From positions 1 to 35,478 of IMG/VR virus record IMGVR_UViG_3300045988_136057: a DNA stretch of 35,478 bases; one strand, 5' to 3'. Positions within the stretch are counted from its first letter, which is position 1. Every line of letters starts with the position of its first letter. This document shows positions 1 through 35,478 of the stretch, in pieces. The notes beneath the pieces are model-generated. The model ran no database searches and was not told the origin of the DNA. It saw only the letters and a program-made list of their open reading frames with translations. This stretch comes from a virus. The position numbers and the translations under genes were made by a program.

Positions 1-55
1 CCCAGCGTAAATCTAAAGTCATACTGTGATAGCCAGTTTTAAAGTCATGAGTAAC
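1..55. repeat. 55-bp terminal direct repeat, identical to 35424..35478 (circular-assembly overlap or terminal redundancy)
   Basis: Direct comparison: cccagcgtaaatctaaagtcatactgtgatagccagttttaaagtcatgagtaac occurs at both window ends. Confidence 0.95.
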
Positions 56-1707: not shown

Positions 1708-3710
1708 TATACCCCTACCCCCTCTCGTTTAATCATAAAGGCGTCTTTAATACCCTTAGTAATTTGTGTAGTGAATCCGTCAAGGTCTGTTCCGTTGTTA
1801 ATATCAACGTCATTATTCATTACAACATTAATCACATGGGAATCCTGCCACTTTTTGAGTGTTTTATCAATAGCGGATTCTCTCAACGCCTTAATCTCAT
1901 CTTTAGTCATACTAATAGCGTCCGCCGTACGTTTAGCCTCTTTTGCGGCCTTGCCTGTGTTCTTAGCAGTATCTTTATTAGCCTTTGTAGACTCGTCAAT
2001 CTTACTTGTATCGAACTTTAAGCCGTCCTTGCTGAGTTCCGGCATCGTAGGGAGTCCTAAGCTAGCCCCTACGTTGTAGCCATTGTCAAAGGCGTCTGTC
2101 ATGCTCATATAATCCATAGTATCCATGACTTTATATTCATTCGCTATCTCGAAACGCTGCAACATTCCTGTACTATCACCTACTTTATCGATGTTAATAC
2201 CTGGAATCTTATTTATCGCTCCGATTATGTCATTGATACGGCCTTTCACAAAGTTCCAAATACCATTCCATATATCGATGAATAAGTTCCCTACGGATTG
2301 TAGAGGGGCGTGCCATACGTTGGCAAAGAAATTCACAAACGCTGCGACGTTGTTCCATATGAATATGAACACATTCGCCACGGCCGCACCAAATGCGTAA
2401 AAGGCTCCGACGATTATTCCTAATGCACTAATATTAGTGTCAGCGAAGTAGTTGATAGCCTCGACTGCTAGGAAGAACACCACTATCACGGCAATCACAA
2501 GCCCTATAATCCATGTTAAAGGACAAGCATACAAGGCAGCATTTAAGCCCTCTTGTGCTACTATCATAGCGACTATAGCGGCCGTTTCAGCCCAGTCAGC
2601 GACTGTCTTTATTGCTAATGCTCCAGCTGCTATTAAAGAACTACCAGCGGCTATTAAAGATTGTGTAGCGAAGAACCCCATAACACCAGCTAGTATAATC
2701 ATAACCCCTTTAACAATACCGCTATGCTCTCTTAGGAACGAGAACACGCTATTAAACGCCCATATGATAGTGTTCATTGTTTCACCAATAACACCTACTA
2801 TCCAGTAGAACACAGGGGCAGCAGCTTGTATCACATCAACGATACCGTCGACGGCCGTTCTGATAGCGTCTGAGTTCGCCATATCACTTATACGTCTGAA
2901 CACAGGCTCAAATAACTTGATAGCCTTAGATTCAATCTCGGTCATATGGTCGCTCCATTTTTTAGGCATAGCCTTGAATTGCTCTTCAATCTCCGGCATA
3001 TTGTCAACTATAGCTTTCTTGATTACATCAGCCGTTACCTTCCCCTCAGAGGCTAACTTTTTGAGTTCGCCACGAGATACGCCCATAGATTTAGCTATGA
3101 TATTCTCAATCATAGGGGCGTTTTCGGCAATAGAACGGAACTCATCGCCTTGTAACTGACCGCTTGCCATTGCTTGCGTCAACTGTAACATAGCGTTTCG
3201 TTGAGCCTCTTTACTTGCACCGCCTACGATGAATAACTTTTGAATACCCTCCATGAACTCAACGGCCTCTCTAGGGTCAGGGAAAGCGTCATGAGCGGAT
3301 TGAGATAGATGAGCAACGGCCTCAGCCATTGCAAGATAGCCACCTCTAGCCCTCAATGCAGATTGATATATCATATCATTGAGTACTATAGCGTTCTGTT
3401 GACTGCCTGCGACTAGCTGCATACGGGCCTGTACACTCGCCCAATGCTCAGCAGTAGATTGTAGATTATTGATAGCGTTATGTGTAGCGGCAACCGCCCC
3501 CATAATACCATTCGCCAGCATATTGCCTACTGTACTATTCAGTACACCCCCTAAACTAAAGGATAGGCTCGTACTTGCTGCGGTTACTGCACTCATCTTA
3601 GAGTGCAACGTGTTCATCTTGTTATAAGCGTTTGTGGTCGCCGTAGCTGCTGCGTTCATAGCGTTAGGGATATTTGTCTGTAAACTTATATAGTTAGATA
3701 ATGTAGCCAT
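1707..3710 (-). CDS. Tail tape measure protein
   Basis: 667 aa, follows the chaperone pair. Has an alpha-helical Ala/Gln-rich N-terminal region and a long central block of hydrophobic helices typical of tape measure proteins. Confidence 0.85.
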   Translation of the reverse strand: MATLSNYISLQTNIPNAMNAAATATTNAYNKMNTLHSKMSAVTAASTSLSFSLGGVLNSTVGNMLANGIMGAVAATHNAINNLQSTAEHWASVQARMQLVAGSQQNAIVLNDMIYQSALRARGGYLAMAEAVAHLSQSAHDAFPDPREAVEFMEGIQKLFIVGGASKEAQRNAMLQLTQAMASGQLQGDEFRSIAENAPMIENIIAKSMGVSRGELKKLASEGKVTADVIKKAIVDNMPEIEEQFKAMPKKWSDHMTEIESKAIKLFEPVFRRISDMANSDAIRTAVDGIVDVIQAAAPVFYWIVGVIGETMNTIIWAFNSVFSFLREHSGIVKGVMIILAGVMGFFATQSLIAAGSSLIAAGALAIKTVADWAETAAIVAMIVAQEGLNAALYACPLTWIIGLVIAVIVVFFLAVEAINYFADTNISALGIIVGAFYAFGAAVANVFIFIWNNVAAFVNFFANVWHAPLQSVGNLFIDIWNGIWNFVKGRINDIIGAINKIPGINIDKVGDSTGMLQRFEIANEYKVMDTMDYMSMTDAFDNGYNVGASLGLPTMPELSKDGLKFDTSKIDESTKANKDTAKNTGKAAKEAKRTADAISMTKDEIKALRESAIDKTLKKWQDSHVINVVMNNDVDINNGTDLDGFTTQITKGIKDAFMIKREGVGV

Positions 3711-3890: not shown

Positions 3891-4312
3891 ACCGCTCTAA
3901 CCTTTTCGTCCATGCCTACCTCAAAACCTTGAGCCTCTACAACTGCGTTTAAGAGGTCAGCATATTCACCAGGTGTCAGCATTGCTTTGACAAGTTCCAA
4001 TGGGTCATTTACGCCCCAACTATTTTGAAGTTCCATATCGTCAAGGTTAGGGTAAATGATAGATTCTAAAAGCATAGCGTCGTTGAATCCTTGACTATCA
4101 AATTTTTCACGAGTAACGCCTGTCTTACTGTCTTTAATCATCTTTGTGTAGCGGTTGCGTAACTTATCAATGACTTTATTCTGTAAGACATTGATTTTCC
4201 ATGCAACAGGCTCATCGCCTGCTTTAATGCGGTTAGAGGCAACATATTCAACTTGATTGACGATTTCAACATTATTTTTTAAAAATGCGGTTAAGTTTTG
4301 AGTATCGGACAT
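3878..4312 (-). CDS. Tail assembly chaperone (XkdN-like)
   Basis: 144-aa ORF between the tube and tape measure genes. Carries the slippery site at its 3' end. Confidence 0.8.
   Translation of the reverse strand: MSDTQNLTAFLKNNVEIVNQVEYVASNRIKAGDEPVAWKINVLQNKVIDKLRNRYTKMIKDSKTGVTREKFDSQGFNDAMLLESIIYPNLDDMELQNSWGVNDPLELVKAMLTPGEYADLLNAVVEAQGFEVGMDEKVRAVKNS
3884..3890 (-). promoter_or_regulatory. Programmed -1 ribosomal frameshift slippery heptamer A_AAA_AAC
   Basis: Minus strand reads GTA AAA AAC TCC TAG. The heptamer is in X_XXY_YYZ phase relative to the chaperone frame and sits one codon (TCC) before its stop. Confidence 0.7.
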
Positions 4313-4866: not shown

Positions 4867-6222
4867 CTATTCTACGACTACTGTCATGTACAATTTTTCC
4901 ATTGCAACGGTAGGCTGCAAGGATACAGTAACAACAACGTCCTCTTTCTTATCACCTTGAACTGGCATTTCAATATCTTTGTCATCAAAGCCTTGAATTG
5001 CACGCACTTTTTGGTATTCCTCAGCCAAGAATACGAGGTCGCCCCATAAGGATTTACGGCCGTCTGCGTCATTCTGAGCCTTATCAAGATACGTTTTGTT
5101 GAACAAGTGAGCTGCGTCAATCGCCCAGTTATCAAGCACTCGGATTACTTGATTGTAAGAGAAGTCTACGTTTTTCTCTTTTGTGAACTCAGTAAAGGTA
5201 TTGATGTCCTTAGCCACTCGAACGTCGCCCTTGATGTTGCCACCTACTGGGTCTGTTACGATATGGAACATGAACATACCGTCTTTGATTGCTTGCTCAA
5301 TCTCATACTGCTTGTGTTTAGTATCAACAGTATATTCGCCGTTGTATACCTCATTCCCTACTGTACGATTGATAGGGCAAGCTGCCTCTTTACCAGTTAC
5401 CCAGTACGCTAAGCTGCCTTTAGGTGTAGCCTCGTCTGTAACGTCATTCAAGATACTGATAACGCCCTCATGGTTTACCTTTTTCTTGCCATGAATTACA
5501 AGCTGGAACTTAGCCCCTGTTTGGTTACGGCAACGGTCAGTAAAGTTAATCAACAAGGATTTAACTGTTTCGTCATCGCCAGCATAACCTAAGATGTTGA
5601 AGTAGTAAGGCTCAATCATATCCAAGCCGTCTTGATAATTTTGAAGTGTGATTGCACTACCATTAGAGCCACCTGTAAACGCCTTGTATGCGGTCGCTGT
5701 CAAGTTACCGGACTTAGTGAATGTTACAAAGTCATTGTCTACTAATTGAGTAGCGTCCTTTAAGCCTTTTTGAATATCTACTGTTTTACGCACGCCGTCT
5801 GTTGTAAGGTAAGTAGTTACTACGAATTTACCCGCCTCGTCTGGGTCGTTTTGTACAGAGAATCCTAAGTCATTACCTCGAACGCCTTTATATTTAGCCT
5901 TGCCTACCTCAGATGTAGCCTGCTCGCCGTCGCTATTCAAACGATAGAAATAGCCAGTCTTTAGACCGATGAATAAATCACGTAAGCCTTTCATTTTGTC
6001 ATTACCGTAGTCATAACCAAAGTACTTGCGGCAGTTCTTTTGGAACTCATCAGCGTCTACTCTAAAGACCTCACCAGCAACGCCCCAGTCAAGGTCAAGC
6101 AACATAGCACCGAAACCTCGGTCAGATACATCGGCGTATGCACGATTTTTAGATACAAAGTTAATATATGTACCTGGCATTGTTTTGTTTTTAAACAAGA
6201 AAATACCGCCACCTAAAGCCAT
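4867..6222 (-). CDS. Contractile tail sheath protein (XkdK-like)
   Basis: 451 aa. N-terminus MALGGGIFLFKNKTMPGTYINF is typical of sheath proteins. Followed by tube and chaperone genes. Confidence 0.9.
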   Translation of the reverse strand: MALGGGIFLFKNKTMPGTYINFVSKNRAYADVSDRGFGAMLLDLDWGVAGEVFRVDADEFQKNCRKYFGYDYGNDKMKGLRDLFIGLKTGYFYRLNSDGEQATSEVGKAKYKGVRGNDLGFSVQNDPDEAGKFVVTTYLTTDGVRKTVDIQKGLKDATQLVDNDFVTFTKSGNLTATAYKAFTGGSNGSAITLQNYQDGLDMIEPYYFNILGYAGDDETVKSLLINFTDRCRNQTGAKFQLVIHGKKKVNHEGVISILNDVTDEATPKGSLAYWVTGKEAACPINRTVGNEVYNGEYTVDTKHKQYEIEQAIKDGMFMFHIVTDPVGGNIKGDVRVAKDINTFTEFTKEKNVDFSYNQVIRVLDNWAIDAAHLFNKTYLDKAQNDADGRKSLWGDLVFLAEEYQKVRAIQGFDDKDIEMPVQGDKKEDVVVTVSLQPTVAMEKLYMTVVVE

Positions 6223-6229
6223 ATATTAC

Positions 6230-6463
6230 CTAGCCTTTCACGGGCGTCGTCAACGCTCGATTTAAAATAATTTCAATTTCATCATGAGAATATAATTCAT
6301 CATCATTCAAGTACAATCTGAGCAAGTCAGAGTATCGCTTGTACTTATCAGATTGAATGATTGTTAAAGCGTCAAAACGCTCTACTTCATTAGTCGTAGC
6401 CTCTACGTTTTCAGCGGTCGCCTCAACGATTTCAGCAACGTCCTCAGCTTTCTTTCTAGCCAT
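6230..6463 (-). CDS. Hypothetical small acidic protein (head-tail joining region)
   Basis: 77-aa ORF. Its start overlaps the upstream stop (ATGGCTAG). Dense same-strand packing. Confidence 0.5.
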   Translation of the reverse strand: MARKKAEDVAEIVEATAENVEATTNEVERFDALTIIQSDKYKRYSDLLRLYLNDDELYSHDEIEIILNRALTTPVKG

Positions 6464-14008: not shown

Positions 14009-14764
14009 TTAGTCCTTTACGTTCTCAAACTTATAACCATATTTCTTTTGGTTACGTTTGAGGAAGTTGTCTACTGCCGCATTGCTATCCTTACCACGCA
14101 AGCCCTTTTTACGAGCCGTTGCTACTGCCTTAGTGAATCCGGCCGTATCAAAATGAGTTCCTTTAGTGATTTTACGGTAGCCACCACTATGTGTAGCAAC
14201 GATAGACTTAGCCTTTGTCCCTGCTAGTGCGAGCATATCAGCAGGACTAAAACTACTGTTATTAGGGTGATTATGTACAAGTGTACTGCCCTTATGGATT
14301 CGACCAGGCAGCCCTACGTTACTTTTACCGCCATGACTATAAGTATGTACAAAGCCGTTACTATCAATCTGAATCAAGTGTTCTTTATCACTCTTACCGT
14401 GCTTATTACGGAACGCCGCTATAGCGTCCCTCTCAGTCTTGGTCTTGATTTTGTTGTTCATTCGACTAGGCAAGTCGCCGCTCGTCTTACCAGTACGACC
14501 AGCTGCGTTACGCCACTCGTACTTATTAGCACCGGTACCGCTTGCACCACGACCGCCCTCGACTCCGAACTCAATATCTTCAAGTTCCTCAATCAAGGCA
14601 CTAGCTAGGGAATGACTTTCAAGGTCTGAAATAATCTCGGATTCATCTGTTACAGAGTTCCATAGTTCCCATTTGTTACCAGGTCTTTTAAACATGATAT
14701 AAGTATCATTCAGTTCGACCATGTTGTAGTCAATCATCTTCAATACAAAACTTTTAATCTTCAT
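14009..14764 (-). CDS. RadC-like JAB/MPN-domain protein with unknown N-terminal domain
   Basis: Start placed at ATG 14764 (RBS GAGGTG). The C-terminal half EHLIQIDSNGFVHTYSHGGKSNV...STLVHNHPNNSSFSPADM resembles the RadC/JAB E...HNHP...S..D motif, with a spacer one residue shorter. Confidence 0.55.
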   Translation of the reverse strand: MKIKSFVLKMIDYNMVELNDTYIMFKRPGNKWELWNSVTDESEIISDLESHSLASALIEELEDIEFGVEGGRGASGTGANKYEWRNAAGRTGKTSGDLPSRMNNKIKTKTERDAIAAFRNKHGKSDKEHLIQIDSNGFVHTYSHGGKSNVGLPGRIHKGSTLVHNHPNNSSFSPADMLALAGTKAKSIVATHSGGYRKITKGTHFDTAGFTKAVATARKKGLRGKDSNAAVDNFLKRNQKKYGYKFENVKD

Positions 14765-15809
14765 CTTTTTCACCTCGTTTAGACATTCGTTTTGTTACTG
14801 CATTATCAATGTAGCTTACTTCCAGCCCTTTATAATCATATCCAACGTCGCCCCCATAGACTATTATGTTTCTAGGCTCACATGATTCTATAGCGGCCGT
14901 CATTCCCTCAGTCCATACTTTAAAAGCCTCGTCGTCCCTTTTGACCCCTATAGTAGATATGGCAATCGTACCACCTTTAGGAATCCCTAGAAAAGCAAAG
15001 TCAAACGTACGGCTATCTCCCCAGGATACAGTAGGAATGACCGTGCAGCCTAAATCTTGCATAATCTGACCGACTAGCCTCGACCGATATATGTTCCATA
15101 TCATCATAGCGATAGGCATATCAAGATATAGACTAAAGTCCGGTGTCAGTACACAGTCCCATTCTGCAAGTATAGGGGCGTAGTCGTGAGGATTGTTCCA
15201 TATACGCTCGAATTGATAATCATCTAAGAAAAAGTGTACCCCTGCTTTGTCTACTGGTGGTGTACTTTTCACATAGTTGAATCCGATTAAATGCTCCGGC
15301 CTCACTACGACCCTGTCAAGTGTAGGAATCTGATAGTACCCCTCAGCCCTCGACTCATCGAAGTCATGCAAGTTATAGGTATTCATCGTCCTTTCACGTT
15401 CATTTTCTTTCTCGACCTCAACAGGCTCCGGGTCAACAGGGTCTATAACCTCGAATCCGAAGTCAGTCATATCAAAGTCAAGAATGTCATTCATTTCTAA
15501 GGCTAATAAGCCAGCGTCCCAGCTAGCCGCCTCAGATACTTTGTTATCTGCCAATCTAAAAGCCTTTATTTGTTGCTGCGTCAAGTCGTCCGCTCTAATA
15601 CAAGGCACTACCCTCATTCCTAATGATTGAGCAGCCGCATATCGTGTATGACCGCATATAATCACGTTCTTTTTATCGATGATGATAGGATTCTTGAATC
15701 CGAACTCTTTAATTGAGTTAGCAACTAAAGGTACTGCCTTTTGATTGTTGCGTGGATTCTTGTCATACAGGATTAAATCCGCAAGATTCATTTCTTCAAT
15801 CTTAATCAT
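14754..15809 (-). CDS. ParB-like nuclease domain protein fused to a DUF4417-like domain
   Basis: N-terminus has YDKNPRNN and GHTRYAAA (ParB/sulfiredoxin motifs). C-terminus has HFFLDDYQFERIWNNP...TPDFSLYLDMP, as I recall for DUF4417. Confidence 0.75.
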   Translation of the reverse strand: MIKIEEMNLADLILYDKNPRNNQKAVPLVANSIKEFGFKNPIIIDKKNVIICGHTRYAAAQSLGMRVVPCIRADDLTQQQIKAFRLADNKVSEAASWDAGLLALEMNDILDFDMTDFGFEVIDPVDPEPVEVEKENERERTMNTYNLHDFDESRAEGYYQIPTLDRVVVRPEHLIGFNYVKSTPPVDKAGVHFFLDDYQFERIWNNPHDYAPILAEWDCVLTPDFSLYLDMPIAMMIWNIYRSRLVGQIMQDLGCTVIPTVSWGDSRTFDFAFLGIPKGGTIAISTIGVKRDDEAFKVWTEGMTAAIESCEPRNIIVYGGDVGYDYKGLEVSYIDNAVTKRMSKRGEKDED

Positions 15810-17387: not shown

Positions 17388-17568
17388 GCTTATACTCCCT
17401 TGTACGCTCAACCTCTATCGTTAAGTACCTTTTACATCTAAGTTCATCAAACGTAGATATGCACTCTACTATATGATATGACGTATTCGGTCTATCTATA
17501 TCGATAATTTTGAGTTCATCTTCATCGCTTAAAAGTTCAAATATCTCTTTTAGAGTTTTTATCTTCAT
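17380..17568 (-). CDS. Hypothetical protein
   Basis: 62-aa ORF with ATGA overlap upstream and ATGAGTAA overlap downstream. Confidence 0.45.
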   Translation of the reverse strand: MKIKTLKEIFELLSDEDELKIIDIDRPNTSYHIVECISTFDELRCKRYLTIEVERTREYKHE

Positions 17569-18341
17569 AGTTCACCTCTCAATGTTTCATTACATCGCTT
17601 TAGTATATCAAGAATCAACGGTATAGGAATGTTACTCCGCTCGTTGTACCCTCTCGTATTCTTCCATGAGATAGTACTTTTACTCCCTATCTGCTTTAGT
17701 CTTAAATCAATGTTGCTACTAAACCGTGTAGGCTTTTTATAATCAAAGCCATAATCACTATAATAGGTCAGATTCTCATAAGGTAAGTCGAATCCTATAA
17801 TGTCCTCGATATATTCCCATATCCTACCAAAGGCAGGATTTTCAATCACAAAGATTTTAGGATTGTACCTCTTAATAATCTGAATCGTGTTATAGATACA
17901 CATTTCACCGTTTATTCTAGTCCTAAATTGATTGTCATATTTATACTGATAACGCTCATAATCAGAATAAGGTCTTATGGTGAATTTACTAGGCTCTTTC
18001 ATCTTTCCGAATAACGACGTCATAGCGTGTTCTTCCTTTTTCCAGCAAGCATTACCTTGTCGCATAGAACTTGCAACACTCCATGATTCGCAGGGCGGAC
18101 TAGCTAGGATAATGTCCGGTGTAGGGAGTTCATCAAGTTGACCGTATAAAGCGGCCTCATTATACAAAGTATTGACCGATAAGTCTTGATTCAAAAAATC
18201 AGTACTTTTATTCTCTCTATCGATTCCAATCGATATTATCCTAAACTACCCCCCCACATTTTGAGTATTATACTCATTTACAGCTTGTTTATAGCAGCCG
18301 TTACCACTATCAAACAAGCCCCATATAATAGGCTCACTCAT
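17565..18341 (-). pseudogene. C5-cytosine DNA methyltransferase interrupted by a single in-frame TAG (18246..18248)
   Basis: The ATG at 18341 gives MSEPIIWGLFDSGNGCYKQAVNEYNTQNVGG (motif I-like LFDSGNG), then TAG. The same frame continues FRIISIGIDRENKSTDFLNQD...ILASPPCESWS (motif IV PC) ...FVIENP (motif VI ENV-like). A G7 tract sits immediately 5' of the TAG. Confidence 0.7.
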
Positions 18342-23144: not shown

Positions 23145-24083
23145 CTATTTTCTAACAATCTTGAACGGTCTAGCAGCCGCTCCCATTTTAACGTACTCGG
23201 TATACATATCCGGGTGTTCTGTTGCGAATCTCTTAGAGTCAAAGGACTCACGAGGTTTACTACTCTTATATGTGATTTTCCAATCATTGAGTGTAGCAGA
23301 TTCATGTTCGCCCATTTCTAACTTGATAGCGTTCTCTAACTCAGAACGTCGGTCTTTCGCCTCTTGTTCATCAAGTTTTGCCTGCTCCCATGCTATGAGT
23401 GTTTTCTCAAAGCTACTATCTAAGGTCATAGACTCCCCATTTGATGTAGGGAACATTGATTTAATGGCGTTTGAGCAAGCGTCGGAGCCGTCGACTGCTG
23501 GCATGGTCTTTGTTTCGACTAGGTGCCAAAACTCACGCCCTACCTCAATGATAGCTTGAATCACTTTCTCGTCCCGTGGTATCTCTTTATAGACAAAGTT
23601 ATTACCACCGATAAGGACTGCTATCCACCAGCTGGCCTTTCCTGTAACGGCCATATAGTGTTGACATTGAACGTAGTAGTTGTTAGGGACTTTGTCATCG
23701 TCCCATTCGCCCTTTAAGAACGCATTAGCGGTTTTACATTCAAGGCCGCTATCAACCCCTACTATTTCACGGTCAATGTTAGCTAAGAGATATGGATACT
23801 CTTCAGACTGCAATGTAAAGTTATTATTTCTAACTTTCATACCAGTCCGACGCTCAAACTCTTTAGCTACGACGTCCTCTAAGACTGTCCCCCAGTACAT
23901 AGCCTCAGATTCTTTCTCATCGATTTTATCAGAGGTTTTGTCTAGCCATACGTCGATAGGACTAGCCCATTGACTAACACCTAGTACTGCGGCCATATCA
24001 GAGCCACCTAGCCCCATTTTACGAACTTTGAGCCAGTCCTTACGACTTGCTCCCTTGCTATCAAAGATTTTTTTGTAACTCAT
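23145..24083 (-). CDS. YqaJ-like viral recombinase exonuclease (lambda Exo-like PD-(D/E)XK)
   Basis: N-terminus RKMGLGGSDMAAVLGVSQWASPIDVWLDKT matches the YqaJ family. 312 aa, adjacent to recT. Confidence 0.85.
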   Translation of the reverse strand: MSYKKIFDSKGASRKDWLKVRKMGLGGSDMAAVLGVSQWASPIDVWLDKTSDKIDEKESEAMYWGTVLEDVVAKEFERRTGMKVRNNNFTLQSEEYPYLLANIDREIVGVDSGLECKTANAFLKGEWDDDKVPNNYYVQCQHYMAVTGKASWWIAVLIGGNNFVYKEIPRDEKVIQAIIEVGREFWHLVETKTMPAVDGSDACSNAIKSMFPTSNGESMTLDSSFEKTLIAWEQAKLDEQEAKDRRSELENAIKLEMGEHESATLNDWKITYKSSKPRESFDSKRFATEHPDMYTEYVKMGAAARPFKIVRK

Positions 24084-24096
24084 TCCTTAAACTCCT

Positions 24097-24192
24097 TTAC
24101 ATGAATACAATCAATAATACCAAGAATGTTATCACTACTGCCAAGAATGTAGCAAAAGACAATAGCAGCAGTATCAGCATAAACAGGCTCAT
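24097..24192 (-). CDS. Possible 31-aa fully hydrophobic peptide
   Basis: Hand translation: MSLFMLILLLLSFATFLAVVITFLVLLIVFM. Fills the gap between two genes. No clear RBS. Confidence 0.3.
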   Translation of the reverse strand: MSLFMLILLLLSFATFLAVVITFLVLLIVFM

Positions 24193-24196
24193 ACAA

Positions 24197-24379
24197 TCAC
24201 CATTCTATGAATGTACTGCCAGTACACCACCAGTAGCCAAGCATGAATAAGAATGTAAACGTAACAATCAACTGAAAGTTGAAAGTTAATGATTCAACAA
24301 GTTCCTTGCGTTTCTCGTTACGCTCAAAACGGATACTCTTTCTTATCTTATGGCGTTGTTTGTAGTCAACATATGTCAT
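24197..24379 (-). CDS. Small protein with basic N-terminus and C-terminal transmembrane helix
   Basis: 60 aa, ...FNFQLIVTFTFLFMLGYWWCTGSTFIEW. ATG start, same strand. Confidence 0.45.
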   Translation of the reverse strand: MTYVDYKQRHKIRKSIRFERNEKRKELVESLTFNFQLIVTFTFLFMLGYWWCTGSTFIEW

Positions 24380-24394
24380 GTTTATTCACCCCTC

Positions 24395-24580
24395 TTATAG
24401 CAACTCTTCGATACTAACCTCTAAATAGTTAGCTATCTTTTCAATGTTTTTGAGGCTAGGCTCATAATCACCTCGACGCCAGCCTGTGATACTTGACGTT
24501 GGAATGTTTAAGTCCTTGCACATACGATAAGGGGTTAAGCCCTTATCAAATAGAATCTCCTCTATCTTTTTGTACTTCAT
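24395..24580 (-). CDS. XRE-family HTH regulator (Cro-like)
   Basis: 61 aa. LTPYRMCKDLNIPTSSITGWRRGDYEPSLKNIEKIANYLEVSIEELL is a classic XRE HTH. RBS AAAGGGGGA. Operators lie upstream. Confidence 0.8.
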   Translation of the reverse strand: MKYKKIEEILFDKGLTPYRMCKDLNIPTSSITGWRRGDYEPSLKNIEKIANYLEVSIEELL

Positions 24581-24602
24581 CTATCCCCCTTTCTCGTGAG
24601 GT

Positions 24603-24620
24603 GGTACAGATTTCTGTACC
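24603..24620. promoter_or_regulatory. Operator O1: perfect 18-bp palindrome GGTACAGA-TT-TCTGTACC in the XRE gene leader
   Basis: Read directly. Lies between the predicted -10 element and the RBS. Confidence 0.6.
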
Positions 24621-24634
24621 TTATCGACAACTAT

Positions 24635-24664
24635 ATACTACCACAGATTTCTGTACCATGTAAA
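24635..24664 (-). promoter_or_regulatory. Promoter of the XRE/early-left operon, with operator O2 (24640..24657) in the spacer
   Basis: Minus strand TTTACA-N18-TAGTAT, with TGG just upstream of the -10. The spacer is the half-degenerate palindrome GGTACAGAAATCTGTGGT. Confidence 0.55.
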
Positions 24665-24693
24665 GCACTTTTTAAAAAATATTTTTTCATACG

Positions 24694-24727
24694 AAAAAAA
24701 GCCCTATCCACCTAAGCGGATAAGGCT
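24694..24727 (-). terminator. Intrinsic terminator T4
   Basis: Minus strand AGCCTTATCC-GCTTAGGT-GGATAGGGCT (one G-U pair) followed by TTTTTTT. Confidence 0.6.
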
Positions 24728-24733
24728 TTATAG

Positions 24734-24832
24734 ACACAAAAACGCCCCTACGTTCCAGGAGTGAATTGGAGTAGGGGCGTTCTTGCTGATTGCAACATTG
24801 GAGTTAGTGTAAGTACCCAGGAAAGTTACTAC
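24734..24832 (-). ncRNA. Candidate small RNA 2 (~100 nt; own extended -10 promoter and terminator T3)
   Basis: TGTTATAAT at 24839..24847 (minus strand). The 10-bp stem ACGCCCCTAC/GTAGGGGCGT (24742..24780) is followed by TTTTGTG. The transcript contains ACUCCAAU twice and CACUCCUGG. Confidence 0.4.
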
Positions 24833-24856
24833 ACAGTTATTATAACAGATTGAGTG

Positions 24857-24937
24857 AAATAAGAAAAGCCCCTCGGAGGATTTTGAGGGGCTTTTTCTCA
24901 TAATCAAAAGTTTAACCTATGATTAACGCAACATATG
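24857..24937 (-). ncRNA. Candidate small RNA 1 (~80 nt; own promoter and terminator T2)
   Basis: Minus strand TTGTAT-N17-TGATATAAT (-35 at 24966..24971, -10 at 24943..24948). Hairpin GCCCCTC-AAAATCCTCC-GAGGGGC (24868..24891) followed by TTTTCTTATTT. Confidence 0.45.
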
Positions 24938-25118
24938 ACTATATTATATCAAAATGATTGTCATGATACAACATCAGATATATATCAATGTCATTATCTT
25001 AAATCCTGTTGCGAAAATTGGGGCTATATGCTCGTTTTCATAATCTCGTGAGTGTTTATATTAAAGAGATATAAAAGTCGCCTCTGAGGGCTTATTTTGA
25101 GCGTCTTTTTATAGGCAT

Positions 25119-25144
25119 AAAAAAAGAGGCTGCTATGCAGCCCC
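25119..25144 (-). terminator. Intrinsic terminator T1 after the early accessory operons
   Basis: Minus strand GGGGCTGC-ATA-GCAGCCTC followed by TTTTTTT, immediately after the TAA at 25145. Confidence 0.65.
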
Positions 25145-25513
25145 TTAGTCATAATAATCCTCGTCAAAGCACTCGTCCTCGTCATCGTCATCTACCTCGT
25201 CGATACGATAACCAAGCATGAGTTCATCAATTAAGAATCTCACGCCTTGCTCATCATACTCACCTGGGTCAATGATTGGCTCGGCTATCCAGTCAGCCGT
25301 CCAAATGTAGTCAACGCCCTCCGGCCAGTCAAAATCTAAGAAGTACGTCCCGCCTAGTTGCTGAGATTCCTCCCATTGTTCCCTCGTATTTTTGCAGATA
25401 CAAGGGGACGTTCTCATTTCTCTATCATATATAAAGTCCCAGGCGTCCTCATATGTTGAACACTCGTATAGAACTCTGTTTGAGTAATGGTCTTTCACTA
25501 ATAATGTAGTCAT
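25145..25513 (-). CDS. Highly acidic small protein (candidate DNA mimic / anti-restriction)
   Basis: 122 aa. By my count 35 Asp/Glu against 8 Lys/Arg. C-terminus EVDDDDEDECFDEDYYD. Last gene of an early operon. Confidence 0.55.
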   Translation of the reverse strand: MTTLLVKDHYSNRVLYECSTYEDAWDFIYDREMRTSPCICKNTREQWEESQQLGGTYFLDFDWPEGVDYIWTADWIAEPIIDPGEYDEQGVRFLIDELMLGYRIDEVDDDDEDECFDEDYYD

Positions 25514-25528
25514 CTGTTTTCACTCCTC

Positions 25529-25798
25529 TTATGCACGCAAGTCATGACCTGTTTCATCTTCGCAAGTATGCAAGATTTCACGGCGTAAAGCCTTGATTTC
25601 CTTTTCTTGCTCATCATTAGCACCATTTAATGTGATAGCCATATCATATAGTAACTCACATTTTGCCACGAAATAAGTAACGCTATATACTGGGTTATCA
25701 AGAATACTTTTTGTTGTTTCCCAGCCACGTTTTACCATTTCAATTTTTTCTGCAGCCATTTCTTGATTGATTGCATTGATAATAGTTTGTGTAGTCAT
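25529..25798 (-). CDS. Hypothetical early protein
   Basis: 89-aa ORF with RBS GAAAGGAAA, first gene behind promoter P_B. Confidence 0.5.
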   Translation of the reverse strand: MTTQTIINAINQEMAAEKIEMVKRGWETTKSILDNPVYSVTYFVAKCELLYDMAITLNGANDEQEKEIKALRREILHTCEDETGHDLRA

Positions 25799-25859
25799 TT
25801 TGATTTCCTTTCACCGCTCTGAGCGGATTCCTTAACCTGGGGTCATATCCCCTACCTTT

Positions 25860-25894
25860 GATTATATATTACTATATAATCATATAGACGTCAA
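25860..25894 (-). promoter_or_regulatory. Early promoter P_B with overlapping palindromic operator
   Basis: Minus strand TTGACG-N17-TAATAT (25889..25894 and 25866..25871). The 22-bp element gattatatattactatataatc (25860..25881) is GATTATAT-N6-ATATAATC. Confidence 0.65.
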
Positions 25895-25931
25895 GAACTT
25901 TTTTACTCAAATATGAAAGTTCATCAAACTT

Positions 25932-26117
25932 TCATAAAAGGCGGCTGCGTACATACTCAGATATGGATAAGCCAGCCTTAGAGGCTGCTGCTCTTACTTC
26001 CTCATACTCAGCGTCATTGAATAGAATCCCTCTGTTCTTACGTCGCCCCTCGTCCCCTACTGTTACTGGGCGTCCTGCTCCCTCACGATTGCCGCCCCAT
26101 GTTCCTTTACTCATCAT
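25932..26117 (-). CDS. Ribbon-helix-helix (CopG/MobC-like) DNA-binding protein; candidate autorepressor of the early operons
   Basis: GGNREGAGRP...RKNRGILFNDAEYEEVRAAASKAGLSISEYVRSRLL fits an RHH beta-strand plus two helices. Start placed at ATGATG 26117/26114 (RBS AAAGGTGG), overlapping the upstream stop. Confidence 0.6.
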   Translation of the reverse strand: MMSKGTWGGNREGAGRPVTVGDEGRRKNRGILFNDAEYEEVRAAASKAGLSISEYVRSRLL

Positions 26118-26304
26118 CTGCCACCTTTCTAAACGCCTCATCTATCACCTCACCGATAGCCTTGTTCCTTGCTCTGTACTCTTGCTCGTCAATCTCGTTG
26201 TTGAGATACATACAGTACACATAATTATAGTATGAGTTGAGTTCCCTCAACGTAGTTATAGGGCCAGCCCCTTTGAGGGGCCGGCTTAATATGTTCTTGC
26301 TCAT
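26107..26304 (-). CDS. Hypothetical early protein
   Basis: 65-aa ORF with ATG start, tightly packed. Confidence 0.5.
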   Translation of the reverse strand: MSKNILSRPLKGAGPITTLRELNSYYNYVYCMYLNNEIDEQEYRARNKAIGEVIDEAFRKVADDE

Positions 26305-26308
26305 GTCA

Positions 26309-26662
26309 TCACGCTTTCAACCAAAGACCGAAGAGTCGCTCTAGTGTAGGAGCGTACAACGTCTTACCGGATTCAAGCGTACATTGCCAGGACAATAAGC
26401 TATGGTCAAAGCGTGATGTAGGCACGAGTCCTGTTTTGTATTTAAACTCCGCCGCACTACTGATAGGTGCGTCCATGTCGTCGAATACATGGATAGTATC
26501 GCCCTCGTATTCAATCTTGAATGGCGTCCGGTCATATAGCAAGTACTTCATATAAGACTCTGATATGAGTTTCTCCGGATACACCTTTTCGCTCTTATAT
26601 TGTAATTCAGAAATGTAGCGACCTCGTGCCACTACTCGGTCATTGACGTACAAGTTTAACAT
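26309..26662 (-). CDS. Hypothetical early protein
   Basis: 117-aa ORF preceded by a GNRA-loop hairpin (CGGCCCC-GCAA-GGGGTCG) and RBS GAAAGGAAA. Confidence 0.5.
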   Translation of the reverse strand: MLNLYVNDRVVARGRYISELQYKSEKVYPEKLISESYMKYLLYDRTPFKIEYEGDTIHVFDDMDAPISSAAEFKYKTGLVPTSRFDHSLLSWQCTLESGKTLYAPTLERLFGLWLKA

Positions 26663-26712
26663 TGTTACTTTCCTTTCATGAGCGACCCCTTGCGGGGCCG
26701 CCTCTTAACTAC

Positions 26713-27075
26713 CTACTGCTCAACCTCTACAAGTTCAAAGTCATACTCGTCCTTACTGAGCAAGGCTCTCTTCATGACCTTTACAACGTCATCGATTGTC
26801 TTTAGTTGCTCCGGCTTGAATCGTGCGTTCTTATCACCAAAGAGTACTGTGTACCCTTGCTTGATTGAACTGATACAACGCCCCAGCTTTGACTTGAACT
26901 CACTAGCTGGCTCTCCGTCGTACTCACTCATCAAGTCCCCTAAGTCTGAGTCGTCGTGTACAAACCACCAGTCATGGTAGTACATAGCCGCTTGTCTGAG
27001 CAGCCCTATCATTGTACTAGCCTCGAACTGTACTCTACCCTCGCCTTTGATTCTCAACTCATAAGACTTTCTCAT
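26713..27075 (-). CDS. Hypothetical early protein
   Basis: Start placed at ATG 27075 (RBS GAAAGGAAA). The track GTG at 27096 lies inside the leader hairpin. Confidence 0.5.
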   Translation of the reverse strand: MRKSYELRIKGEGRVQFEASTMIGLLRQAAMYYHDWWFVHDDSDLGDLMSEYDGEPASEFKSKLGRCISSIKQGYTVLFGDKNARFKPEQLKTIDDVVKVMKRALLSKDEYDFELVEVEQ

Positions 27076-27141
27076 ATTCTGTTTTCCTTTCACCACCGCT
27101 GAGCGGTGGATTCAAACACTAAAGGTACAACTCATACCTTT

Positions 27142-27176
27142 GATTATATATTAACATATAATCAAGATAATGTCAA
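27142..27176 (-). promoter_or_regulatory. Early promoter P_A with overlapping palindromic operator
   Basis: Minus strand TTGACA-N17-TAATAT with TGT just upstream of the -10 (27171..27176 and 27148..27153). The 22-bp element gattatatattaacatataatc (27142..27163) is nearly identical to the one in P_B. Confidence 0.65.
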
Positions 27177-27379
27177 GCATTAATTTTTTCGATATAGTTT
27201 TCAACGTCAACCATACCAAAAATGTAGGCACGCTCCAGGTGGTACATACTAGGCGTTATCAAGGCAACCTTGCCATTGATGTATAGATGATACAGTCTAT
27301 TAGTCCATACTACCTTGAATGTAGCGTTCTTATGTACTTCTCTTAATCTTTTCACAAACAATGTATCTATAACTCTCAT
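27173..27379 (-). CDS. Hypothetical early protein
   Basis: Start placed at ATG 27379 (AAGGAG, 8 nt spacer). 68 aa. Confidence 0.5.
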   Translation of the reverse strand: MRVIDTLFVKRLREVHKNATFKVVWTNRLYHLYINGKVALITPSMYHLERAYIFGMVDVENYIEKINA

Positions 27380-27391
27380 GTCATTCACTCC

Positions 27392-27844
27392 TTATTCATA
27401 GCGGTGAGTCGCAACACGCTCACCAGTAAAGTTATTTACGATGTACCACTCACAACCAATAGAGCAGTTATGAGCATATTCAGATAGTTCCGCTTGTGTA
27501 TCAGCTTTCATGATGAGTTTATCATCGTGTAGGCTATACATAGAGTACTTACGATACAAGAACTCCATAGGTACGTTGATGTACTTGTCGACGTTTTCAA
27601 GTTCCTCAGTAAACAAGTTTACCTTGCCGTCTATCTCGTTATAAGCCAGGCCGTCGACTAGGCGGTTTAACTGATAACTCCGGTGAGTGTAAAAGTAGAG
27701 GTCATCTACCTTTATCATATAAAAGTCAGTATTGCTTTTATATCGACCTTGCTCAACGTGTTTCTTGATTACCTCGATGTGTAAAAATGGGTTAGCAGCT
27801 TGTAAAATCTCTTGTAATTTCTTTCTTGTGATTCTCTTAGTCAT
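27392..27844 (-). CDS. Hypothetical early protein, paralog of 27858..28136 with a C-terminal extension
   Basis: Start placed at ATG 27844 (AGGAG, 8 nt spacer). Shares KKLQEILQAANP and ...DGKVNL...VDKYINVPMEFL with the upstream gene. Confidence 0.5.
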   Translation of the reverse strand: MTKRITRKKLQEILQAANPFLHIEVIKKHVEQGRYKSNTDFYMIKVDDLYFYTHRSYQLNRLVDGLAYNEIDGKVNLFTEELENVDKYINVPMEFLYRKYSMYSLHDDKLIMKADTQAELSEYAHNCSIGCEWYIVNNFTGERVATHRYE

Positions 27845-27857
27845 CTTATTCACTCCT

Positions 27858-28136
27858 CTATTTCAACAACTCAACTGGTACATTGATGTACTTATCAACA
27901 CGATTGAACTGTACATCTTTTAATTGAAGTTTACCGTCAACGGTATTTTTAACCATATCAGCAACCAACGCTTTAAGTGTAGGATTGCCTACGATTCTGT
28001 AGTAGTAGAATCCTACTTTTACAGTAAAGCGTACATCATGGCCGCCGATACGGCTATACATATCAACTTTTTCAACTTTAATTTTTTCACCTGGGTTAGC
28101 AGCCTCTAAGATTGCTTTTAGTTTCTTACTTGTCAT
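27858..28136 (-). CDS. Hypothetical early protein, paralog of 27392..27844
   Basis: 92 aa. Contains KKLKAILEAANP and ...DGKLQL...VDKYINVPVELL. First gene behind P_C. Confidence 0.5.
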   Translation of the reverse strand: MTSKKLKAILEAANPGEKIKVEKVDMYSRIGGHDVRFTVKVGFYYYRIVGNPTLKALVADMVKNTVDGKLQLKDVQFNRVDKYINVPVELLK

Positions 28137-28199
28137 GGTGTAGTTTTCCTTTCCTTTTCATCATACCTTTTAGGGTTATTACCCTTACCTCTTGAATAT

Positions 28200-28228
28200 A
28201 GTGTAACATATATTTAAGTTAATTACAA
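28200..28228 (-). promoter_or_regulatory. Early promoter P_C (diverged copy of the P_A/P_B architecture)
   Basis: Minus strand TTGTAA-N17-TACACT with TGT just upstream of the -10 (28223..28228 and 28200..28205). Confidence 0.45.
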
Positions 28229-28260
28229 GTACTTTTTTCAAATTTCATAAAAATTTTTTC

Positions 28261-28318
28261 AAACACAAAAAGAGGGGCTATAGTACTGTGTTCTAGCCAC
28301 TTGTACTATAGCCCCTCT
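28261..28318 (-). terminator. Strong intrinsic terminator ending the late/lysis transcript
   Basis: Perfect 16-bp stem agaggggctatagtac / gtactatagcccctct (28271..28286 and 28303..28318), followed on the minus strand by TTTTGTGTTT. Confidence 0.75.
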
Positions 28319-28391
28319 AAGGTCTATCTTATATCGTTGTAATGCATATGCCACCCTCATATGCTAGGGAGATTGTGAATCACCCCCGGCG

Positions 28392-28916
28392 TTATTTACG
28401 GAACGCCCCCGCTAAGAATCCAATCACTCCAACGCCTGCCCATGTATCACGTTGACGCTTTAAGCGTTGCTCAGTCGCTTTGTTTCGCTTGATTTCCTCT
28501 TTCAATTCTATCAATGAGTTCGAGGCTTGACTTAACCTCTCGTCCTGCTCTGTCAATAGATTCGAGGCTTGATTCAACTCGTTCCTTTGTTGCTCGTTGA
28601 TTGCTTTCAAGGCGGTCAATTCCTGCCCCCTCTTCTCGTTGATACTCTTCAAGGCGGTCAATTCCTCGGCCTGCCTCATCGTTAAGCCGTCGACCTCGCT
28701 CAATGATTGCTTTGAGTTGTTGATTGATTCTTCTGCTTTCTGCAAGCTGCTTTTCAGTTGATTCCAATCGGTCAAGGGTACGCTTATAATCTGCTGCGGT
28801 GCTGATGTAGTTTGAGGCGATTCGCCACGCACTAATGAGCAGCAACAAACAAGCAAAAATAAAAACAATCCGCTTAACAGTAAGATACGATTTAATTTTC
28901 TTGATGTAACCCTCAT
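28392..28916 (-). CDS. Spanin-like lysis protein: N-terminal signal/anchor with a Cys cluster, coiled coil, C-terminal transmembrane helix
   Basis: 174 aa: MRVTSRKLNRILLLSGLFLFLLVCCCSLV..., a coiled coil with the tandem 14-aa repeat ELTALK(S/A)INE..., then ...TWAGVGVIGFLAGAFRK. Last gene of the holin-endolysin cassette. Its Leu, Glu and C-terminal Arg codons fit the genome better than the overlapping frame. Confidence 0.5.
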   Translation of the reverse strand: MRVTSRKLNRILLLSGLFLFLLVCCCSLVRGESPQTTSAPQQIISVPLTDWNQLKSSLQKAEESINNSKQSLSEVDGLTMRQAEELTALKSINEKRGQELTALKAINEQQRNELNQASNLLTEQDERLSQASNSLIELKEEIKRNKATEQRLKRQRDTWAGVGVIGFLAGAFRK

Positions 28917-28934: not shown

Positions 28935-29336
28935 TTATAAGTCGTCCCAACGTGCCTCATATCCCCGCACGTCAACGTGTACGAATCCTTGATAGTAATA
29001 CTTACCAATACCGCCCTCAATACCTAACTCTTGACCGCAAGCCTCAGCGACCTCGGCCAAGTAGTCAACGTCAACGCCGTCATATGTAATGTCGGCTGCT
29101 GTGCCCTCAACATGTTGAGAGTTAGATACGCCGCCTACTTCCTCATTATGAGCAGGACAACGGTATCCACTTGTGATAGTAACAGGAACGCCTAAACGCT
29201 CACGGATAGCGTCTAAAAGGTCTACAAGCCGCTTGTCTATGATATGGTCTAGGACGTTACGACCTAAGTTATCAGTTTCGTGTCTATGGCAACTACAAGC
29301 GAACTCGTAGTCATCAAAGTATGTTCCAATCTTCAT
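28935..29336 (-). CDS. Endolysin, peptidase M15 family (zinc D-Ala-D-Ala carboxypeptidase-like), single domain
   Basis: SGYRCPAHNEEVGGVSNSQHVEGTAADI carries the H..D...H-type M15 motifs. 133 aa with no cell-wall-binding domain. Follows the holin gene. Confidence 0.8.
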   Translation of the reverse strand: MKIGTYFDDYEFACSCHRHETDNLGRNVLDHIIDKRLVDLLDAIRERLGVPVTITSGYRCPAHNEEVGGVSNSQHVEGTAADITYDGVDVDYLAEVAEACGQELGIEGGIGKYYYQGFVHVDVRGYEARWDDL

Positions 29337-29403: not shown

Positions 29404-29934
29404 TTATTTCTTTAAAATCATATCGATTCTTGCACTAACTAATTCCAATAGTCCTGCTATTGTTGTATTCCCGCCGTCCCTAAGATTTTCTAAGATAGAT
29501 AAGAACTCAACAGAGGCAAGGTATAGCCATGTGATATTGACAGCGAACGCATATTGACCGCTAATGAAATCAAAACACCACGCCGCAGCAGTTGCCACGC
29601 AGTAAGTGAGTACCTTTGTAATAAAAGGCTTTCTCATGTGTTTTGAGTTAATCAATCCTTTACCAAATGCCGCAGGAATGGCGATATACTTATCAATGCT
29701 GCTCAGATTATCCGGTGTAGCACCTAAATCAATCAACATCTTATATCCAATAGCACCCCATTTAGTGATAAGGTCAAGGAATACAAGAATAATGAATATA
29801 CCTAACACCTGGACGTGTTTCAATCCAAGAATGTATATAGCCACCTCGGCGATAATCGATAATAAGACTTTTAGTACAAAGGATTCAGTCAGCGTTTCCC
29901 AGGCTTTATCTAAGAATGTAGTCAGTTCGTTCAT
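29404..29934 (-). CDS. Holin (Phage_holin_4_1 / TcdE-like, multi-pass membrane protein)
   Basis: 176 aa with about four hydrophobic helices. LDLITKWGAI ... INSKHMRKPFITKVLTY resembles the holin family 4 pattern. Directly upstream of the endolysin. Confidence 0.7.
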   Translation of the reverse strand: MNELTTFLDKAWETLTESFVLKVLLSIIAEVAIYILGLKHVQVLGIFIILVFLDLITKWGAIGYKMLIDLGATPDNLSSIDKYIAIPAAFGKGLINSKHMRKPFITKVLTYCVATAAAWCFDFISGQYAFAVNITWLYLASVEFLSILENLRDGGNTTIAGLLELVSARIDMILKK

Positions 29935-34912: not shown

Positions 34913-35478
34913 TAGCTAGCCCCCATTCTAATAATCTTAGTCGGAGCCTCGTCATTATGCCATGCATAGTTGACGTTGCCATATTTCATAGCATAGCCAC
35001 GTTTCGATGAGTTACCAAAGCAACCACCTGAGCCGTCTGCTATTACAACATGGTCGTCATTGCCATATATGAGCAAGTCGCCCTTGTTAGCATTGCCTGT
35101 GTACTGCTCAGTAGTGTAGCCTTTAGCCTCTAAGTTTTCTCTGAGTGTATCCACCCTTGCAGTACCCTTATTGAACTCATCTTTCAAATCTGAGTTGTAA
35201 TAAGAGCCCGCTGCACATACTGTATCAGCACAGCCATTACTACCATATTGAGAAACTCGGCCGTCATTAGCACTAAACGCCGTATCGACTTGTCCAGCTG
35301 TACCGCCTGCTGCTGTTTTCAATGTAGACGCCCCCTTTTTATTTTTGGCTTTTTCAGCTTGAATCTTTTTGACTGTTTCAGCGTCTGTGTCTTTCTTGAC
35401 CTCATAAGATTGAGGAGCGTCACCCCAGCGTAAATCTAAAGTCATACTGTGATAGCCAGTTTTAAAGTCATGAGTAAC
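34912..35478 (-). CDS. C-terminal part of the hub/XkdQ-like protein (same gene as 1..1033) carrying an NlpC/P60-like cysteine peptidase domain
   Basis: In frame with 1..1033 through the 55-bp overlap, giving 1,545 nt and 514 aa in total. C-terminus NGCADTVCAAGS ... KGDLLIYGNDDHVVIADG resembles the Cys...His arrangement of NlpC/P60 hydrolases. Confidence 0.7.
   Translation of the reverse strand, partial: VTHDFKTGYHSMTLDLRWGDAPQSYEVKKDTDAETVKKIQAEKAKNKKGASTLKTAAGGTAGQVDTAFSANDGRVSQYGSNGCADTVCAAGSYYNSDLKDEFNKGTARVDTLRENLEAKGYTTEQYTGNANKGDLLIYGNDDHVVIADGSGGCFGNSSKRGYAMKYGNVNYAWHNDEAPTKIIRMGAS

Follow-up and report, generated by a model that had tools for sequence, protein, structure and literature searches.

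A candidate Aca-like ribbon-helix-helix feedback circuit on three small-gene operons of a Veillonella-type phage

We analyzed IMG/VR record IMGVR_UViG_3300045988_136057 over its full 35,478 nucleotides (the window), with the focus on a 3.1-kb block of nine small genes (g1 to g9) carried on its minus strand. The block comprises three operons whose promoters (P_C, P_A, and P_B) carry variants of one palindromic operator, and the last gene of the P_A operon, g7, encodes a ribbon-helix-helix (RHH) DNA-binding protein that is the candidate binder of these dyads. The reading that we favor, and hold to be probable although well short of assured, is that the three operons form a negative-feedback circuit resembling those of anti-CRISPR-associated (Aca) regulators and of the Arc repressor, giving an early burst of orphan proteins whose task is most likely counter-defense or the immediate takeover of the host or of prophage immunity. 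Its regulatory side is well supported by comparative genomics; an anti-defense role of the cargo, to which the architecture, the position after the lysis genes, and the turnover of the cargo point, is plausible but unproven.

Dyad operators and the RHH regulator

A sequence-only reading of the window had placed two near-consensus promoters, P_A and P_B, in this region. Their coordinates were confirmed on the minus strand (Table 1), as were the ~30 nearly identical base pairs that they share, including AAAGGTA at the inferred start; their -10 hexamers match the consensus at just 4/6 positions. The 22-bp palindrome described over both -10 regions (GATTATAT-N6-ATATAATC) occurred exactly twice (25860..25881 and 27142..27163), against 0.00 occurrences expected in shuffled sequence. 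At P_A the dyad proved to be longer than first noted, extending over 26 bp (TTGATTATAT-N6-ATATAATCAA; O_A) and reaching from about -24 to +2, counted from the inferred start of transcription. P_B carries the same operator, as had been proposed (ATGATTATAT-N6-ATATAATCAA; O_B), and this copy is identical in four close relatives (WIN, L090, L091, and L094). A repeat search added P_C, a third promoter built in the same way and absent from the earlier description; its region is a 62% copy of the P_B region and precedes the first of the small genes that follow the late terminator. The dyad at P_C is degenerate (TTAAATATA-N8-TATATTCAA; O_C), being a single base short of perfect in the window and perfect in three close relatives (CTTGAATATA-N8-TATATTCAAG), and its half-site departs from the P_A and P_B version by one base, changed symmetrically on both arms. 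The combined pattern TTGAWTATA-N8-TATAWTCAA matched the genome three times, at O_A, O_B, and O_C only, and gave 0 matches in 100 shuffles. The common half-site, TTGA(T/A)TATAT, overlays the spacer, the -10 box, and the start site.

A promoter scan of the region returned 43 matches against 40.7 expected from shuffles, no excess in this AT-rich DNA, so the status of these promoters rests on their conservation in relatives. Symmetry was examined in 31 distinct related promoters, selected by the right arm and the -35 TTG alone. The set shows no variation in the -35 TTG or in the -10 TA...T, with 17-nucleotide spacing, and the two arms were complementary in register at 80%, compared with 37-50% when one was slid by 1-3 bases. 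The spacer TGA, whose bases are not needed by the polymerase, was also invariant and was mirrored by an invariant TCA 21 bp away on the opposite arm. The outer arms vary in a compensatory, symmetric fashion (CCTTACCTTT/AAAGGTAAGG, CCTTAACCTT/AAGGTTAAGG, and CCTTATCTTT/AAAGATAAGG); in one clade the symmetry reaches 42-50 bp, and paralogous promoters show symmetric double changes in the outer arms.

A perfect palindrome of ~50 bp that takes in the -35 boxes was seen in three relatives (L039, ~3330..3385; L036, ~4090..4145; and L011, ~720..790). It reads as two fully interdigitated divergent promoters, of which the leftward one would run antisense into the upstream cargo gene.

The terminal gene of the P_A operon had been called an RHH DNA-binding protein, and database comparison bore this out. 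g7 scored 31.1 bits against the NikA-like Pfam family PF21983 (curated cut-off 27) and gave a weak match to PHROG 6506, an Arc-like repressor. Its relatives among PDB sequences, NikA and ParG, were weak, and matches to the NCBIfam families MbpA and MobA fell far under their cut-offs. The protein consists of a Gly/Arg-rich N-terminal arm (WGGNREGAGRPVTVGDEGRRK; WGGNREGAGRP), a beta-strand, and two helices, after which it ends. Its start codon overlaps the stop codon of g6, which suggests translational coupling of the two genes. Pfam gave no DNA-binding match for the other eight proteins of the three operons, and apart from g7 the neighborhood has a single DNA-binding protein, a Cro-like helix-turn-helix (HTH) protein. 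Two copies of another palindrome (GGTACAGAAATCTGT; 24602..24617 and 24643..24658) flank the HTH gene promoter (24664..24635), an arrangement that points to separate targets for the RHH and HTH regulators.

Linkage of the site to the regulator was followed with both DNA and protein queries. The exact site followed by AAAGG, used as the search pattern for viral contigs, was found in 11 of them, all from related phages with holin and lysin ~75% identical; the piece examined held an RHH homolog in nine, and the remaining two are cut at the contig end. A protein-based scan yielded 60 viral loci and 19 genome loci. Among the 41 loci with an RHH identity of at least 46%, the RHH gene in every case (41/41) closes an array of small genes that comes straight after the lysis cassette, and a recognizable dyad variant stands on the array promoters in 40, with up to four per locus. 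Conservation of the palindrome in relatives that retain the genes, on which the sequence-only reading had staked itself, was thus observed. A metagenome scan with 20 specified dyad bases matched 75 contigs, 22 of them in promoter context, and the fetched fragment contained the RHH gene in 20 of these 22; for one of the other two, another fragment of the same contig has it. The other 53 matches are chance ones, mostly in AT-rich contigs, where the RHH gene is absent.

More distant g7 homologs, in L053 and L073 (Selenomonas) and others, keep the arm as WGGAREGAGRP and lie just 5' of HNH endonuclease and terminase genes.

Proposed circuit and its known counterparts

In the circuit that we propose, the 3.1-kb stretch (28228..25124, minus strand) would be the first transcription block, placed directly after the late-operon terminator. 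Upon DNA entry, host RNA polymerase would fire P_C, P_A, and P_B as sigma-70-type promoters. The RHH protein, made last and from P_A as the strongest promoter, would dimerize and bind the dyads, probably with two dimers per site; such a dimer of dimers, on arms with the inner cores ~11 bp apart, is what the examples of Arc and AcrIE10 (see below) lead one to expect. The conserved Gly/Arg N-terminal arms would contact the invariant outer TGA/TCA bases, and bound protein would sterically block polymerase at the -10 and +1 positions of all three promoters. The outcome would be a short, self-limited burst of nine small, fast-turnover orphan proteins.

Aca14 of Pasteurella multocida (HDR1349883.1 / WP_005725436.1) is an RHH-type Aca regulator of 66 amino acids that binds an AT-rich inverted repeat over a -10 box and represses its own and a neighboring operon (Feussner et al., NAR 2026, PMC13551039). 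g7 is of similarly small size (61-62 amino acids), an AT-rich inverted repeat again overlaps the -10 box and is repeated on the adjacent downstream operon, as with O_A, O_B, and O_C, and the cargo consists mostly of unannotated small genes in both systems. They differ in host (Pasteurellaceae versus a Negativicutes phage), in gene content, the window operons being without a known acr, csx20, or restriction-modification gene, and in the number of controlled promoters, which is three in the window and up to four in relatives. A helical extension is described for Aca14, whereas g7 has the WGGxRxGAG N-terminal arm, a comparison made by description.

AcrIE10, a bifunctional anti-CRISPR (Acr)-Aca protein encoded on a Klebsiella plasmid, uses its N-terminal RHH domain to bind, as a dimer of dimers, an inverted repeat of 20 bp within its own promoter (Nat Commun 2026, PMC13530269). 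It has in common with g7 the pairing of an RHH domain with an inverted repeat at its own promoter, which in AcrIE10 lies over the -10 and -35 boxes. A search of PDB sequences detected no sequence similarity between the two, and g7 is a stand-alone regulator. Certain relatives of g7 echo the fusion design: in four of them (L012, L030, L035, and L038; gene ~6001..6435) the RHH protein is fused to an extra C-terminal domain of 84 amino acids, encountered solely in this fused form, and the product is possibly a regulator-effector fusion of the AcrIE10 type. By analogy, the window circuit is best read as one that would do the same job as Aca14 and the AcrIE10 RHH domain.

g7 and O_A display the feature by which Aca regulators are known, a small DNA-binding protein with an inverted repeat in the promoter of its own operon, here placed over the -10 and start of P_A. 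In operational terms an Aca protein shares its operon with a validated anti-CRISPR or anti-defense gene, and Pfam, PHROGs, and NCBIfam recognized no such gene beside g7. The acr-aca operons of the HTH-type regulators Aca1 and Aca2 (reviewed in PMC13551039) likewise combine variable small cargo with a regulator gene at the end, under a strong promoter and an inverted-repeat operator; their regulators also reach neighboring operons, their 5' leaders are structured, and the regulator fold is different (HTH versus RHH). Anti-defense genes have been found behind Aca motifs in bacteria and archaeal viruses (PMC13551039, PMC11065993). RNA binding by g7 would be pure speculation.

The Arc/Pant system of phage P22 is similar in combining an RHH gene with a dyad that overlaps an early promoter and in its location beside late genes, and g7 has its weak Arc-like PHROG match. 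In the immI region of P22, which holds Arc and Mnt, the operator of an RHH repressor overlaps the strong early promoter Pant, and the co-transcribed gene is expressed in a self-limited burst. The Arc gene comes first in its operon, and a single antirepressor gene is under its control, in a region embedded beside late genes. In the window, by contrast, g7 is last in its operon, three operons are involved, and no Ant-type domain was found.

By fold family, the best matches of g7 are NikA (R64) and ParG (TP228), the latter of which uses a flexible N-terminal tail in operator binding. The genomic role of g7 appears to be another one: a relaxase or ParF ATPase partner and an oriT are not present, and although PF21983 was matched over its cut-off, as for a NikA/MobC-type protein, no relaxase was found among the open reading frames (ORFs) scanned.

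Cargo and competing explanations

The small genes of the P_A operon had been described as lacking a recognizable function, and the family libraries agreed. The nine window cargo proteins had no usable match in Pfam, PHROGs, NCBIfam, or PADLOC, the one match being a weak PADLOC hit (13.7 bits) for the 67-residue product of g3, and ten cargo representatives from relatives gave nothing in Pfam or PHROGs. No known Acr or anti-defense family was found in the cargo by Pfam and PHROGs (window and scanned representatives of relatives) or by NCBIfam (window set); AcrIF23, AcrIF6, AcrVA3, csx20, and restriction-modification genes in particular were absent from the window and from the scanned representatives. 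PDB sequence searches with g4 and g9 returned nothing meaningful. Homolog searches with the same two proteins retrieved 6-7 close relatives each and no others, and a full HMMER profile search for the g4 family retrieved five representatives in 1.84 billion proteins. The structural comparison of the small proteins suggested earlier was run for g4 and g9 only: their AlphaFold models were of low confidence (predicted local distance difference test scores of 57 and 64, respectively), and Foldseek with these poor models gave no match against the PDB below E = 0.5.

Across the related loci, ~17 cargo families are mixed and matched around the fixed regulator, and identity between cargo proteins ranges from 39% to 98% among genomes with 83-90% DNA identity. 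The g9 family, which occupies the separate P_B operon in the window, lies directly 5' of the RHH gene in several prophage relatives, that of Veillonella parvula among them. In temperate relatives the array is the final prophage segment before host genes (L071, which is V. parvula, and L035), and in L039 it adjoins a convergent integrase gene. The case for an anti-defense cargo is circumstantial and is built on small size, orphan status, turnover, first place in the transcription program of an integrase-less genome, and a post-lysis hot-spot in temperate relatives. Of the sequence-only proposal that this is an acr-aca-type operon, the regulatory half was supported (promoters, dyad, terminal RHH gene, and the operator on P_B), and the anti-defense half found no family or fold match.

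Several points weigh against the RHH feedback circuit with anti-defense cargo. Binding of the RHH protein to the dyads and repression of the promoters are predictions from sequence. Because the -10 box, the discriminator, and the start site all fall within the right arm's reach, conservation of that arm could partly reflect promoter function, and some relatives have a degenerate left arm (GAATTTAT at P_A of L090; GAATATGT or GAATAAGT in two clades). Operator half-sites showed no co-variation with the variable beta-strand residues of the regulator across clades and no specificity-switch signal, a comparison made uninformative by an operator core that hardly changes between clades. In the family libraries the cargo proteins bear no likeness to any known anti-defense protein, and the two structural models are too poor to judge. 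Lastly, the prophage-end position by the attachment site in temperate relatives is also typical of lysogenic-conversion or exclusion genes.

The same circuit might carry an ordinary payload, an explanation that we regard as rather unlikely but still a serious contender. The RHH protein would then be a generic Arc- or Cro-like early shut-off, and the genes would serve takeover, antirepressor-like, or housekeeping functions instead of inhibiting defenses. This would suit the match to PHROG 6506, the position of the block immediately before the gene for the Cro-like HTH protein and the modules for recombination and replication, and a cargo with no match to any anti-defense family. Core early functions are usually conserved, however, whereas this cargo differs even among close relatives and is restricted to the phage group, and Pfam found no Ant, KilA-C, or Bro domain.

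The array could instead be a prophage accessory ("moron") locus, expressed at a low, steady level in the lysogen for host benefit or phage exclusion and merely inherited by the integrase-less phage of the window. Its function would then be defense or conversion, as opposed to anti-defense. We consider such a locus improbable. Its position as the last element before host genes in V. parvula (L071) and L035, and against the integrase gene in L039, is what such a locus would show, and the promoters are of host type and independent of the lytic cascade. Yet the array is kept intact, with three operators, in a ~35-kb lineage in which the windows and fragments examined have no integrase or CI-type repressor, and where a lysogen-only function would for that reason be useless. 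PADLOC gave no usable defense match beyond the weak one for the 67-residue protein, and membrane or exclusion-type features were not noted in the cargo.

Alternatively, the palindrome may be bound by a host regulator or by the Cro-like HTH protein, or may be a structural or bidirectional-promoter feature, with the RHH protein acting in a relaxosome-, partition-, or recombination-directionality-like capacity. The similarities to mobilization and partition proteins in Pfam, NCBIfam, and the PDB (NikA, MbpA, MobA, and ParG) lean in this direction, as do the fully symmetric 50-bp elements of some relatives, readable as two divergent promoters, and the distant RHH homologs found in other contexts, such as before HNH and terminase genes. 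This explanation is nevertheless highly unlikely in view of the strict co-occurrence of the site and the RHH gene and of the invariant spacer bases, for which the polymerase does not account. A partition or relaxosome role was rejected, as the ORFs scanned in the complete genome include no relaxase, ParF, or integrase partner, and the HTH protein was rejected as the dyad binder since a distinct set of palindromes accompanies its gene. Autorepression through palindromes in the promoter is common among RHH antitoxins, but a toxin-antitoxin module with g7 as the autoregulating antitoxin was ruled against as extremely improbable: g7 stops at helix B of the RHH fold, without a C-terminal tail for binding a toxin, and the gene adjoining the RHH gene varies by clade (c28, c12, c13, c10, or c8), which leaves no fixed toxin partner.

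The favored feedback circuit can be carried one step further, to a proposal that we put forward tentatively as possible. The RHH protein with its WGGxRxGAG arm would represent an undescribed Aca-type family of Negativicutes (Veillonella) phages, the ~17 cargo families would be new anti-defense or anti-immunity effectors, and the fusions would be bifunctional Acr-Aca proteins. If true, the effectors flagged in this way would include g4, g5, g8, the acidic g9, a family of 186 amino acids in relatives, and the fusions of RHH with the 84-residue domain. Veillonella phages are almost unstudied, and their ways of countering host immunity are undescribed; a conserved regulator with a recognizable operator would offer a cheap, sequence-only bait for candidate early effectors in these phages and prophages. 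The locus would in addition bring Aca-like control of the RHH type to a lineage related to the Firmicutes, with a regulon of three or four promoters. Should the cargo prove ordinary, the system would still provide a compact negative-feedback promoter family, reusable as a genetic part.

Genome setting and transcript features

The window begins and ends with the same 55 bases (1..55 = 35424..35478), which indicates a complete circular genome of ~35.4 kb. Every gene lies on the minus strand, in the order structural genes, lysis cassette, 16-bp hairpin, small-gene block, Cro-like HTH gene, YqaJ exonuclease, RecT and replication genes, and packaging genes. Neither an integrase nor a CI-type repressor turned up in the window ORFs that were scanned. 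To judge by its sequence, the source is an uncultured Veillonella-type phage: the nearest genomic relative of g7 is in a V. parvula prophage, and the G+C content of ~41% is compatible with that host. Cultured phages gave no match to the region by megablast or to g7 by protein search, and in the cultured-phage comparison the terminase was only 52% identical to those of Clostridium phages. Contigs of 34-36 kb with the gene order of the window were present in several samples, with no integrase in the fragments examined, and in QZLY01000198.1 the proteins across the small-gene region are 93-100% identical to those of the window.

Table 1. Positions of the small-gene block, its regulatory sites, and flanking features in the window
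Feature	Position	Strand	Description
P_C	28228..28200	minus	TTGTAA-N17-TACACT
O_C	28192..28217	both	Degenerate dyad at P_C
P_C operon		minus	g1, g2, g3
g1	28136..27858	minus	92-residue orphan, paralog of g2
g2	27853..27392	minus	~150-residue orphan, start codon uncertain, paralog of g1
g3	27376..27173	minus	67-residue orphan
P_A	27176..27148	minus	TTGACA (27176..27171)-N17-TAATAT (27153..27148), TG extended -10
O_A	27140..27165	both	26-bp dyad at P_A
P_A 5' leader	27141..27076	minus	Hairpin at 5' end (27141..27121), GC-rich hairpin (27109..27093), fold z = -3.5
P_A operon		minus	g4, g5, g6, g7
g4	27075..26713	minus	120-residue orphan, family c12
g5	26662..26309	minus	117-residue orphan
g6	26304..26107	minus	65-residue orphan, family c28
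g7	26117..25932	minus	RHH DNA-binding protein, 61-62 residues, last gene of its operon
P_B	25894..25866	minus	TTGACG (25894..25889)-N17-TAATAT (25871..25866)
O_B	25858..25883	both	Dyad at P_B
P_B operon		minus	g8, g9
g8	25798..25529	minus	89-residue orphan, family c31
g9	25513..25145	minus	122-residue orphan, family c13, very acidic C-terminal tail
Terminator-like hairpin	25146..25124	minus	Intrinsic type with T-run, after g9
Holin	29934..29404	minus	
M15 endolysin	29336..28935	minus	
Spanin-like gene	28916..28392	minus	Coiled-coil
Late (lysis) operon hairpin	28318..28271	minus	Perfect 16-bp inverted repeat, terminator-like, just 5' of P_C
Cro-like HTH gene	24580..24395	minus	

The hairpin closing the late operon is kept in L090, L091, and L094. 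Within the small-gene block, the TGA stop codon of g3 (27175..27173) sits inside the -35 hexamer of P_A, which leaves the P_C and P_A operons no space for an intervening terminator. The sole terminator-like signal of the block follows g9, and the transcripts from P_C, P_A, and P_B are therefore probably nested with a common 3' end. The promoter-leader regions of P_A and P_B have in common the -35 box, two hairpins in the leader, and the ribosome-binding site GAAAGGAAA, which in the P_A leader comes just after the GC-rich hairpin. Compensatory change in the leader hairpins was limited to 2 pairs, and no RNA-motif claim is made. Rfam returned no family at threshold within 24000..28500.

GC-rich stem-loops right before (U)GAAAGGAAA were seen in both leaders and between g4 and g5 (27093..27109, 25814..25826, and 26675..26700); they show little covariation and may be processing or stabilizing elements. 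Downstream of the block, a small-RNA-like unit (24971..24860, minus strand) consists of a promoter (TTGTAT-N17-TATAAT; 24971..24943), a structured transcript of ~77 nucleotides, and a strong terminator; it has a fold z of -5.1, is kept in L091 and L094, and matched no Rfam family. Between this unit and the HTH promoter lies a tandem pair of very stable hairpins (24695..24840, minus strand; z = -7.7), the second of which is a terminator (24729..24698). A TTG-initiated ORF of 59 amino acids listed there is probably not a gene.

Elsewhere in the genome, one gene (14754..15809) combines a ParB N-terminal domain with DUF4417, and an ORF of 209 amino acids (17565..18194) has only a short match to C5 cytosine methylases. 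For either one, a part in DNA modification or counter-restriction is possible.

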